64,000 bases of DNA from Parcubacteria group bacterium. Its GTDB lineage: Bacteria > Patescibacteriota > Minisyncoccia > UBA6257 > JACRHW01. The stretch's first letter is position 1; each line of letters starts with the position of its first letter. A program made the position numbers and the translations under genes. A model generated the notes under the pieces. That model searched no databases, was not told the DNA's origin, and was given only the letters and a program-made list of their open reading frames with translations. Shown here piece by piece: positions 26,575 through 28,015 of the stretch. Where the stretch lies: NCBI GenBank assembly GCA_016217555.1, contig JACRHW010000023.1, positions 64,466 to 128,465 of the forward strand. Direction: 5' to 3'.

Positions 26575-26580
26575 ATGTTT

Positions 26581-26620
26581 TAGCTTGTAGCTATTAGCTG
26601 TTAGCTTTTAGCTTAGCTAT
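26581..26620. repeat. Tandem TAGCTNT heptamer array (about 5 units).
   Basis: tagcttg tagctat tagctgt tagcttt tagctta. Related arrays at 26998..27030 (opposite strand) and 27762..27788. Together they bracket the four-helix-bundle gene and atpB. Confidence 0.8.
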
Positions 26621-26971
26621 TATCGTATTTAATATACGCATCACTTCATTTAATAATCGATCGACTTTGTGAAAATCTAAATTCTTTGCATTAAATAATC
26701 GCTTTGCTATTTCGATCTGTGTCTCAAGCTCCCCTCCTGACCCATAAGCAACCAAAAGGAATTGTCTAAACTCCTTACGCGAACCCCTCGATCTTCCTTC
26801 AGCTATGTTTGATGGGATAGAAACTCCCGCACGCCTCATTTGAGAAGTTAATCCGTACATCTCTTCCTTTGGAAATTTCTCTGTAAGAACGTAAAGCTCA
26901 ACCACTAAATCCATTGCCTTCTGCCAAACAATTAATTGTCTAAATGACTCTATCATAATTCTAGCTTTCAC
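26594..26971 (-). CDS. 'Four helix bundle' protein (23S rRNA intervening-sequence-protein family, TIGR02436-like) inserted between atpE and atpB.
   Basis: …[71 protein letters not shown]… matches the family signature. Confidence 0.75.
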
Positions 26972-26997
26972 CTCATAGCTCTTATCGTTAATCCGTT

Positions 26998-27030
26998 CTG
27001 ACAGCTATCAGCTAAAAGCTATAAGCTCGT
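26998..27030. repeat. TAGCTNT heptamer array on the opposite strand.
   Basis: cagctatcagctaaaagctataagct is the reverse complement of agcttat agctttt agctgat agctg. Confidence 0.7.
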
Positions 27031-27755
27031 TAATGATGTGTAGTGGCGAGGCTTATAAACACCGTCGTAAGCATCGCAAACACAAGCGCCTGAATAAATC
27101 CTACAAAGAGCTCCAAACCCAAGAATGGAACAGGCACCACATAGGGTGCCAAAAACGCCATAATAATAAGGAGCACCTCACCAGCAAACACGTTCCCAAA
27201 CAACCTGAATGAGAACGATATCATCTTAGCAATTTCTGAAATAAATTCAAGGATTCCCACAAAGAAATCGATAGGGCTCTTAAAAGTAAAGAACTTCCCA
27301 AAATGCTTCTTCGCTCCAATCGCTCCGATCCCTATAACGTGTACAGAAAACAAGGCAATAAGAGCAAGAGCTAATGTAGTATTAAGGTCACTCGCCCCCG
27401 ACCTCAAAAACGGCACAAACACCTTACCCCCCTCCTTCATCTCAAAAAAACCAAGAGATCCTACTCCAGGAACAATACCTAACCAGTTTGAGGTAAGTAC
27501 AAACAAGAAAATAGTGCCGATAATCGGGAGATATTTCTCCGCCTCATGGCGCGAGCCAAACACTCCACTCATCATACTAAGCAATCCCTCCACTACGACT
27601 TCAATAACATTCTGAAGAAACGAAGGCACAAGACTCTTTCCTTTTAACACAACCATTCCCACCACCAACCAAATCAAAAGAACCACCCACGCAGAAAGCA
27701 ATGTGTTCGTCACAAATCCAAAAATATGTTCCGCAGCAATTTCAATATGAGGCAT
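27030..27755 (-). CDS. atpB: Fo ATP synthase a subunit.
   Basis: …FRLFGNVFAGEVLLIIM… with the conserved Arg-containing helix. Confidence 0.9.
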   Translation of the reverse strand: MPHIEIAAEHIFGFVTNTLLSAWVVLLIWLVVGMVVLKGKSLVPSFLQNVIEVVVEGLLSMMSGVFGSRHEAEKYLPIIGTIFLFVLTSNWLGIVPGVGSLGFFEMKEGGKVFVPFLRSGASDLNTTLALALIALFSVHVIGIGAIGAKKHFGKFFTFKSPIDFFVGILEFISEIAKMISFSFRLFGNVFAGEVLLIIMAFLAPYVVPVPFLGLELFVGFIQALVFAMLTTVFISLATTHH

Positions 27756-27761
27756 GTATTA

Positions 27762-27788
27762 GCTGTTAGCTTATAGCTTTTAGGAATT
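27762..27788. repeat. TAGCTNT heptamer array upstream of atpB.
   Basis: tagctgt tagctta tagcttt. Confidence 0.7.
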
Positions 27789-28015
27789 AGGGACGCGCCA
27801 TCAAATAATCCGACCCTCAATAGCGCCTGAGCTTGTCGAAGGCCCACCTTAATGTCTCTAACTTGTACCATATTTTTAAGTACTTTTTCAAGAGAACATA
27901 GAGTATCAACTCACACCCCAATAATTGGTGGTATGCCGCGACATAGCACCCAAAAAAAGAAAAACCCCGCAGTGCGAGGATTGAGCTTTTTACTTCACAG
28001 TCTCAACGAAAAAGA

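Follow-up and report, generated by a model that had tools for sequence, protein, structure and literature searches.

A four-helix-bundle gene framed by complementary heptamer arrays in the ATP synthase operon of a Parcubacterium

Why should a gene of the four-helix-bundle (PF05635) family lie in the middle of an ATP synthase operon, and what are the tandem heptamers around it? These questions arise from a 64,000-nucleotide stretch of DNA from a Parcubacteria group bacterium (contig JACRHW010000023.1, positions 64,466 to 128,465), hereafter the window, in which an atp operon with the order atpB-E-F-H-A-G-D-C occupies the minus strand and the four-helix-bundle gene has atpB and atpE as its neighbors. 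An initial annotation, made from the sequence alone, had described the operon, the gene and three arrays of TAGCTNT heptamers, the middle one reversed. All of these are confirmed by the order of the open reading frames (ORFs), by Pfam matches of atpB and atpE, by a PF05635 match of the inserted gene (E=3.6e-37) and by the positions of the arrays. The same annotation treated the gene as a recent insertion and suggested that the arrays, which it likened to iterons or operators, could mark the boundaries of the insert or act as promoters. On balance, we favor the view that the insert resembles the intervening sequences (IVSs) of rRNA genes, being a cassette in which a promoterless PF05635 gene lies between complementary arrays of 7-nt units, here lodged between two cistrons of the atp operon.

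On the mRNA strand, TAA closes atpB and is followed by array B, about 40 nt, the four-helix-bundle ORF, array C, the dinucleotide AT and the atpE ATG (Table 1). Array B reads CGAGCTTA TAGCTTT TAGCTGA TAGCTGT CAG; its tandem stretch at 27003-27027 (3.6 copies) is inverted relative to that of array C at 26580-26622 (period 7, 6.4 copies), and its inverted-repeat arm reaches 26998. Array C, which ends in ...ATAATAGCTAAGCTAAAAGCTAACAGCTAATAGCTACAAGCTAAAAC, overlaps the end of the four-helix-bundle ORF and supplies its last ~10 codons together with its stop. Array A lies before atpB in the same orientation as array C, with the units CTAATTC CTAAAAG CTATAAG CTAACAG CTAATAC, then ATG, and a tandem stretch at 27759-27783 (3.6 copies). 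Allowing at most one mismatch, TAGCTNTTAGCT occurs eight times in the 64 kb, always inside array A, B or C, against 0.90 ± 0.94 occurrences in shuffled sequences, none of 100 of which reached eight. B is complementary to C over 18 nt at 89% and over 25 nt at 76%. It is also complementary to A over 16 nt at 100% (16/16), A and C having a 16-nt run in common. The predicted RNA duplex energies are -35.0 kcal/mol for B:C, within the range of the family, and -29.1 kcal/mol for A:B.

Which of these parts belong together? A search with the atpB protein led to genomes of Parcubacteria, members of the Candidate Phyla Radiation (CPR), and 80 related atp loci were compared. In the closest genome (L002; JACRHX010000005.1), whose atpB is 95% and atpE 100% identical to those of the window, a 46-nt AT-rich spacer separates the two genes and contains neither the four-helix-bundle gene nor arrays B and C, but array A is identical and, together with a leader of ~110 nt, nearly unchanged. 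Therefore, B and C are part of the insert and A is not. Gene and arms are either all present or all missing, as parts of a single unit, and arrays B and C mark the boundaries of what is, relative to L002, indeed an insert. The proposal that the arrays are insertion boundaries thus holds for B and C and fails for A, which is a separate solo array before atpB.

The insertion is not recent, contrary to what had been supposed. L162, L163 and L164 have the nearest four-helix-bundle proteins, P0003 (88% identical) and P0004 (85%), and in each of them the gene lies, as in the window, between atpB and atpE with TAGCT arms. The window is less closely related to L162 than to L002: atpB of L162 is 83.5% identical, and the synonymous divergence (dS) is 1.16 for atpB and 1.25 for atpA, versus 0.48 and 0.58 for L002. 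Since the site is filled in all three genomes and the dS of the four-helix-bundle gene, ~1.0 in the L162/L164 comparison, matches that of atpB and atpA, the insert is old. Moreover, dN/dS is 0.07-0.09 against L162 and L164, and the protein is under strong purifying selection. These sequences are read most simply as an old insertion that descended with the operon, was maintained by purifying selection and has disappeared from L002; a second, independent gain here, with relatedness judged from the atp genes alone, is a possible but less simple alternative.

None of the 80 related atp loci has a four-helix-bundle homologue at the atpB-atpE site, and a profile built from 73 homologues found in them, besides the gene of the window, only one such gene in L002. 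Large atpB-atpE gaps in five CPR loci (L022, L040, L041, L045 and L062) hold ORFs that, by sequence inspection only, are unlike the four-helix-bundle gene. At three atp spacers, namely atpB-E, atpH-A and atpG-D, an element is present in either the window or L002 and missing from the other. Right after atpG, L002 carries a different four-helix-bundle gene (L002:5422-5567, 61% identity), inside which the locus sequence ends; it is preceded by TTCTTAG TTCCTAG GGCTTAG TAGTTAG, the first unit of which supplies the atpG stop codon, and the counterpart in the window is a short spacer without arrays. The window has no more than TAA-C-ATG from the end of atpH to the start of atpA, but L002 carries there an extra hairpin of CTTAG type without an ORF (L002:2823-2917). 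This hairpin resembles the element in the atpE-atpF spacer of L002, and the last codons and stop of L002 atpH differ from those of the window, as if the insert had supplied a new stop.

What does the inserted gene encode? Its ORF is open up to a GTG at 26971 (26594-26971, 125 aa), but the ATG at 26956 is the more likely start, giving 120 aa as in the identical NCBI protein P0002. Residues 11-115 match PF05635 (23S_rRNA_IVP) with 127.2 bits against a cutoff of 33.8, and the match to TIGR02436, "four helix bundle protein", reaches 125.5 bits (cutoff 24). The closest solved structure is XCC0516 (PDB 2gsc, E=4.4e-25), followed by 2rld (E=7.8e-5). The motif GxxRxxxSxxxNxxE is conserved in the PF05635 family (PMC3936711); R42, S46, N50 and E53 are present in the window protein, and the leading G position is Q39. 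The predicted isoelectric point is 9.7 (median of the homologues, 9.3). There is also a weak match to bAvd (PF22296, E=8e-4), but identity with the Avd protein of diversity-generating retroelements was rejected, the score against NF033474 being 23.6 bits at an equivalog cutoff of 80. No reverse transcriptase was found by Pfam among the 20 largest ORFs of the window or among the scanned neighbors of ten homologues, template and variable repeats not being part of the search.

Is this layout peculiar to one operon? We inspected the flanks of homologues at 80 metagenome loci with 46-70% protein identity and GC contents of 0.30-0.68, so that the generalization covers relatives in this range of identity to the window protein and not the whole PF05635 family. 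The complementary-array layout holds in most of about 70 sampled homologues. Of 67 flanks on each side, 44 upstream and 43 downstream have a best period of 7 nt, and a further 14 and 16, respectively, have one of 8 nt. At least one strong period-7 array accompanies 41 of 67 genes, compared with 1 of 199 random segments. The two arms of a locus form predicted duplexes of -38.2 kcal/mol on average, versus -22.6 kcal/mol for pairs drawn from different loci, and in 51 of 69 loci a gene's own arms outscore all eight sampled cross partners. Units vary widely between loci (TAGCTTT, TAGGGAT, TAGTGGT, TAGGCAC, CAGTGAA and GGGAAGT are examples), and only the period, TAG or CAG, and the complementarity of the arms are kept. 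Of 51 upstream units, 37 contain TAG, and of 50 downstream units, 36 contain CTA, where ~7% would be expected in each case; many units that lack TAG have CAG instead. An arm has a median of 4 to 4.4 units.

The cassettes also share a genomic setting. The four-helix-bundle gene is co-directional with its upstream neighbor at 40 of 46 loci and with its downstream neighbor at 30 of 38, at median gaps of 58 and 40 nt. The identifiable neighbors at the ten loci scanned are mostly housekeeping genes (Table 1). The downstream array starts at a median of -3 nt relative to the four-helix-bundle stop, and stop codons in all three frames occur within 45 nt upstream of the start in 65% of four-helix-bundle genes, versus 16% of other ORFs. 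At one rubrerythrin-desulfoferrodoxin junction, two loci (L094 and L103) hold the gene between arms of different units, of TAGGC type and TAGAATT type. A single 6-kb locus (L138) contains three four-helix-bundle genes (1411-1776, 2935-3366 and 4208-4582), with their own arm units of the GCGAGCT, CCCCAGA and TAGGGAT types. The ~80 homologous loci yielded no rRNA motifs. Similarly, Rfam detects no rRNA in the window, and the cassette lies outside any 23S or 16S rRNA gene.

Hairpins of the same build without an ORF occupy other spacers and occur as diverged copies. The window contains 9 tandem arrays at period 7, against 0-2 at other periods, and the 596 kb of CPR atp loci contain 60, against 0-18. 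At least one period-7 array is present in 28 of the 80 CPR atp loci, several of them in the atpB-atpE spacer. By the initial annotation's own criterion, recent insertion would be refuted if the arrays were common low-complexity sequence genome-wide, and this is half the case: no TAGCT array lies elsewhere in the window, but spacers of this genome often hold heptamer arrays with other units. The CAAAACG-type element upstream of dnaE is 83% identical to the atpD-atpC hairpin, at the base of whose stem lie the atpD stop and the atpC start. The atpE-atpF hairpin of L002 has exactly one 7-nt unit more than that of the window, and the corresponding units are TAGCT in L162 and TCTAGAA in L164. Some elements without an ORF have the unit family of the resident four-helix-bundle cassette (CTTAG in L002, TAGCT in L162 and the window), which, in a sample of three genomes, suggests that such elements may be cognate to the cassette. 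ORF-less heptamer arrays or hairpins are also found in the atpB-atpE spacers of the CPR genomes L011, L023, L028 and L030 (~4740-4940), so this spacer seems to be a recurrent site for them.

Two further elements of the TGTATCT family are worth recording. One hairpin stands 3 nt upstream of the start of the window's RNase III gene (ATG at 51295); folded from the opposite strand, it is weaker by ~10 kcal/mol. In E. coli, RNase III is autoregulated through cleavage of a hairpin in the leader of its gene, and the heptamer hairpin of the rnc leader could be analogous to that site. The other, an array at 9122-9156, falls within the uvrC ORF (minus strand, 8692-9912), where it codes in frame for IQDTKYQIQDT in the linker that joins the UVR motif to the endonuclease domain; it looks like a solo arm absorbed into coding sequence.

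Table 1. Positions of the cassette, the atp genes and related elements in the window, and gene junctions that hold homologues at other loci; fold energies and z-scores refer to the mRNA strand
Feature	Position	Strand	Remarks
Four-helix-bundle gene, PF05635/TIGR02436	26594..26956 (from ATG)	-	120 aa; Pfam, TIGR02436 and PDB matches
Array B, 5' arm of cassette	26998..27029	-	(TAGCTNN)n on mRNA strand; begins right after atpB stop (27030-27032)
Array C, 3' arm of cassette	26580..26622	-	(NNAGCTA)n on mRNA strand; ends 5 nt before atpE ATG
Array A, solo, 3'-arm type (CTAANNN x5)	27759..27788	-	ends 3 nt before atpB ATG; outside insert
atpB (ATP synthase a subunit)	27030..27755	-	PF00119, E=2e-44; host gene upstream of cassette
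atpE (ATP synthase c subunit)	26347..26574	-	PF00137; host gene downstream of cassette
atpF	25762..26274	-	
atpH	25380..25757	-	
atpA	23843..25378	-	
atpG	22877..23809	-	
atpD	21495..22865	-	
atpC	21142..21411	-	as listed from TTG; ATG at 21381 is the likelier start
ORF-less hairpin filling atpE-atpF spacer	26275..26346	-	CTTAG type: (NNCTTAG)3, loop, (CTAAGNN)4; -17.5 kcal/mol
ORF-less hairpin, whole atpD-atpC spacer	21382..21494	-	(CAAAACN)n paired with (NGTTTTG)n; -32.9 kcal/mol, z=-4.5
Solo (NNNCTAA)x5 array filling atpA-atpG spacer, upstream of atpG	23810..23842	-	atpA stop in first unit
ORF-less hairpin, rnc leader	51299..51385	-	TGTATCT family; -33.9 kcal/mol, z=-4.7
rnc (RNase III)	50600..51295	-	Pfam Ribonucleas_3_3, Ribonuclease_3, dsrm
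ORF-less hairpin filling dnaE-thrS spacer	57159..57252	+	TGTATCT family; -30.1 kcal/mol, z=-5.4
ORF-less CAAAACG-type element upstream of dnaE	53866..53990		z=-1.05, not significant
Pyruvate kinase / four-helix-bundle gene / pyruvate phosphate dikinase			homologue locus
Rubrerythrin / four-helix-bundle gene / desulfoferrodoxin			two loci
Transketolase / four-helix-bundle gene / PfkB kinase			homologue locus
G5/transglycosylase / four-helix-bundle gene / KsgA			homologue locus

Rfam gave no match at E<=1 over 20000-30000 and 51000-57600, and at the gathering score the whole window yields only one tRNA and one S-adenosylmethionine (SAM) riboswitch. The riboswitch (RF00162, 49.9 bits, 32800-32896) lies upstream of the S-adenosylmethionine synthetase gene (32866-34002). 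The ~110 nt upstream of array A (27790-27900, minus strand; L002:700-815), near-identical in the window and L002, are conserved above the neighboring sequence and are preceded by a terminator-like hairpin at 27965-27979. This stretch has no significant fold (z=0.0) and no Rfam match, and may represent the atp promoter and leader or a small ORF (27710-27871).

How might such a cassette work at the RNA level? In the polycistronic atp transcript, arms B and C would pair in an imperfect stem of roughly 30 bp, looping out the four-helix-bundle cistron and setting the atpB stop beside the atpE start. RNase III excises analogous rRNA intervening sequences in other bacteria, and by that analogy the window's own RNase III would be likely to act on the stem. 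The TAG or TAA in each unit would halt ribosomes in most frames before they enter or leave the cassette. Finally, the protein is basic and, judged by homology, pentameric, and the repeat arrays are its probable binding sites.

Several observations weigh against this account. We infer the pairing of the arms and the cleavage of the atp RNA, the latter by analogy. In the minimum-free-energy fold of the cassette RNA, most of B is paired to an AGCTA-rich stretch close by, and B and C are joined by no more than a short outer stem; the long B:C stem is not the optimal solution because TAGCTA pairs both with itself and with that stretch. About 20% of upstream arrays across the homologues have a unit without a stop codon, mostly of CAG type. 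In addition, mismatches within the arms show no excess of G·U (55) over A·C (62; p=0.58), and the hairpin energies of the sense and antisense strands are mostly alike, so that nothing shows complementarity to have been kept in the sense RNA rather than in the DNA. Nor is a recombinase, transposase, integrase or reverse transcriptase present near the scanned cassettes, that is, among the 20 largest ORFs of the window and the neighbors of ten homologues.

The mismatch and strand-energy results, together with the presence/absence differences and the diverged copies, leave a DNA-level role in mobility or recombination as a serious rival, one that we consider possible though not probable and that is compatible with an IVS-like cassette. 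Under it, the arrays would act mainly as terminal or subterminal inverted repeats of a mobile element and RNA pairing would be a by-product. The four-helix-bundle cassette would be the ORF-bearing form and the ORF-less hairpins would resemble miniature inverted-repeat transposable elements (MITEs), mobilized either when arrays recombine or through a trans-acting enzyme, with the four-helix-bundle protein perhaps binding the ends. Inverted terminal repeats, a trait of transposons and MITEs, are present, TAG points inward at both ends as in transposase-binding repeats, arm mismatches lack RNA-strand asymmetry, and units of the resident cassette's family recur in elements without an ORF (CTTAG in L002, TAGCT in L162 and the window). 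Mobility would also fit the gains and losses at the atpB-E, atpH-A and atpG-D spacers between the window and L002, the atpE-atpF spacers that differ by one heptamer, the 83% identical pair in the window and the likeness of the atpH-A and atpE-F elements of L002. However, the only ORF of the window cassette is that of the 120-aa four-helix-bundle protein, and no transposase, integrase or reverse transcriptase lies beside any examined cassette. Filled and empty sites both exist, no target-site duplication is evident at the junctions in the window, and the L002 spacer is unrelated in sequence. Moreover, the atpB-E cassette looks vertically inherited over a dS of ~1, and the co-directional bias and the exact filling of spacers from stop to start suggest selection at the level of the transcript or of translation.

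Could the arrays instead be translation signals, with all-frame stops as insulators and A-rich (CTAANNN)n leaders lacking a Shine-Dalgarno sequence to couple cistrons, their complementarity being secondary? We consider this unlikely. It would explain why (CTAANNN)n arrays abut the starts of atpB, atpE, atpF and atpG, with a shorter version before atpD, why stops often fall in the first unit (atpA here, atpG and atpH in L002, and the four-helix-bundle stop in array C, with a median offset of -3 nt in the homologues), and why three-frame stops are enriched upstream of four-helix-bundle genes; periods 7 and 8 are also not multiples of 3. Yet periods 4, 5, 10 and 11 would do equally well and are absent, one frame is open in array A, and both the complementarity of the arms within each cassette and the stop-less arrays (CAG-type units and the CAAAACG and TGTATCT families) are left unexplained. 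Less likely still are the iterons, operators or internal atp promoters of the initial annotation. Tandem direct repeats are typical of iterons, the protein is basic, and a TATAAG in arrays A and B resembles a -10 hexamer, but cassettes whose proteins are 46-70% identical do not keep the same unit sequence even as their arms stay complementary, the arrays lie between tightly spaced co-directional cistrons, and arrays B and C are absent from the same operon in L002. When 26200-28100 was scanned for sigma-70 sites, 2 were returned versus 3.8 expected, and no sigma-70-like hexamer pair fell in the arrays on the operon strand. Chance low complexity or microsatellite slippage unrelated to the gene is hardly credible. 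Slippage would fit arrays that differ in length by whole units, as between the window and L002 and in Coxiella (PMC4990558), but eight matches where 0.9 are expected, the dominance of period 7 in three independent sequence sets, the near absence of strong arrays from random segments and the match of arms to their own partners refute it. We retain the IVS-like cassette in an operon spacer as our preferred explanation.

A wider generalization is tentative, and we regard it as doubtful at present: heptamer-array hairpins with or without a PF05635 gene may form one widespread, as yet unnamed class of operon-embedded elements, of which rRNA IVSs would be a special case and for which a PF05635 pentamer would be the trans-acting factor. 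If so, the pentamer would read the YAG-heptad repeats of its cognate arrays, including ORF-less MITE-like copies in the same genome, and through them control RNase III processing, translational coupling across the stem, or mobilization. This would give a very large family of unknown function its first testable function, and could account for period-7 intergenic repeats in CPR bacteria and perhaps for cyanobacterial repeats described below.

What is new here? It was already known that PF05635 ORFs are bounded by complementary repeats in rRNA genes, and one paper noted heptamers there; in the literature searched, that Coxiella IVS paper was the only one found to link PF05635 with heptamer arrays. 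The searched literature did not yield the general rule that the arms are complementary and their 7-8-nt units keep a TAG or CAG, a niche of PF05635 genes in operon spacers co-directional with host genes, long-term retention of such a cassette under purifying selection, or ORF-less derivatives built alike. PF05635/TIGR02436 is a very large family (at least nearly 8000 candidates at E<=1e-10) whose function is not known and whose members have been treated as rRNA-gene oddities or possible cas-associated genes. The sampled members now have a recognizable genomic signature, consisting of complementary arrays of 7-8-nt units with TAG or CAG in the unit, a place in tight co-directional spacers of housekeeping operons, and ORF-less relatives of the same build. 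This signature lets annotators recognize such elements, and it accounts for the heptamer-repeat make-up of atp spacers in these Parcubacteria. At least one PF05635 member is retained under purifying selection inside an essential operon. Thus, the vague label of a "selfish gene" gives way to concrete questions about RNase III cleavage, binding of the repeats by the protein, and coupling across the stem.

How does the cassette compare with known repeat systems? Enterobacterial repetitive extragenic palindromes (REPs) and bacterial interspersed mosaic elements (BIMEs) are short dispersed hairpin repeats of intercistronic and 3' operon spacers, with a conserved GTAG-like motif, inverted pairs and REP-associated tyrosine transposases (RAYTs). 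Unlike REPs, the elements of the window are tandem heptamer arrays and not single palindromes, and the protein is a four-helix bundle and not a Y1 transposase. Mazel et al. are said to have described, in 1990, short tandemly repeated repetitive (STRR) heptanucleotides between genes of heterocystous cyanobacteria. Some STRR units (CCCCAGT, CAACAGT) contain CAG. The likeness lies in tandem 7-nt intergenic units, with CAG in some of them as in some cassette arrays; the L138 unit CCCCAGA resembles the STRR1 heptamer, CCCCAGT. No link between STRRs and PF05635 was found in the searched literature. HutP and TRAP bind UAG-repeat RNA sites, with UAGs spaced by ~4 nt in the case of HutP, and in each a ring-shaped homo-oligomer reads the repeats. 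They serve as an analogy only, their folds being unrelated to the four-helix bundle.

Avd (bAvd, PF22296/NF033474) belongs to the same four-helix-bundle superfamily as the window protein, and both are basic. The bAvd family has pentameric, nucleic-acid-binding members. Unlike Avd, the window protein scores below the Avd cutoff and has no adjacent reverse transcriptase. The PF05635-type family itself includes pentameric members that bind nucleic acid (PMC10053308). PF05635 genes also occur inside cas operons, for example between cmr3 and cmr2 in Pleurocapsa, likewise between co-directional operon genes; that study read them as pointing to possible CRISPR-associated functions and did not report flanking repeat arrays (PMC3936711). 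In CPR bacteria, PF05635 genes have been reported in rRNA insertions (PMC11270868).

The cassette is like the S23p IVSs of 23S rRNA genes in Coxiella, Leptospira and others, in which a PF05635 ORF lies between complementary, stem-forming termini. It departs from them in its place, which is the mRNA spacer between atpB and atpE and not an rRNA helix, and from the Coxiella ORF, which is reported to be decaying, in that its own ORF is under purifying selection. In Coxiella, 3-4 GACAGAT heptamers precede the S23p ORF, their number varies between strains, the complementary termini form a 28-bp stem, and RNase III cuts at the first repeat (PMC4990558). The window cassette has the same arrangement of tandem heptamers just upstream of the ORF, and the Coxiella unit GACAGAT contains the CAG that recurs in many TAG-less units of the homologues.

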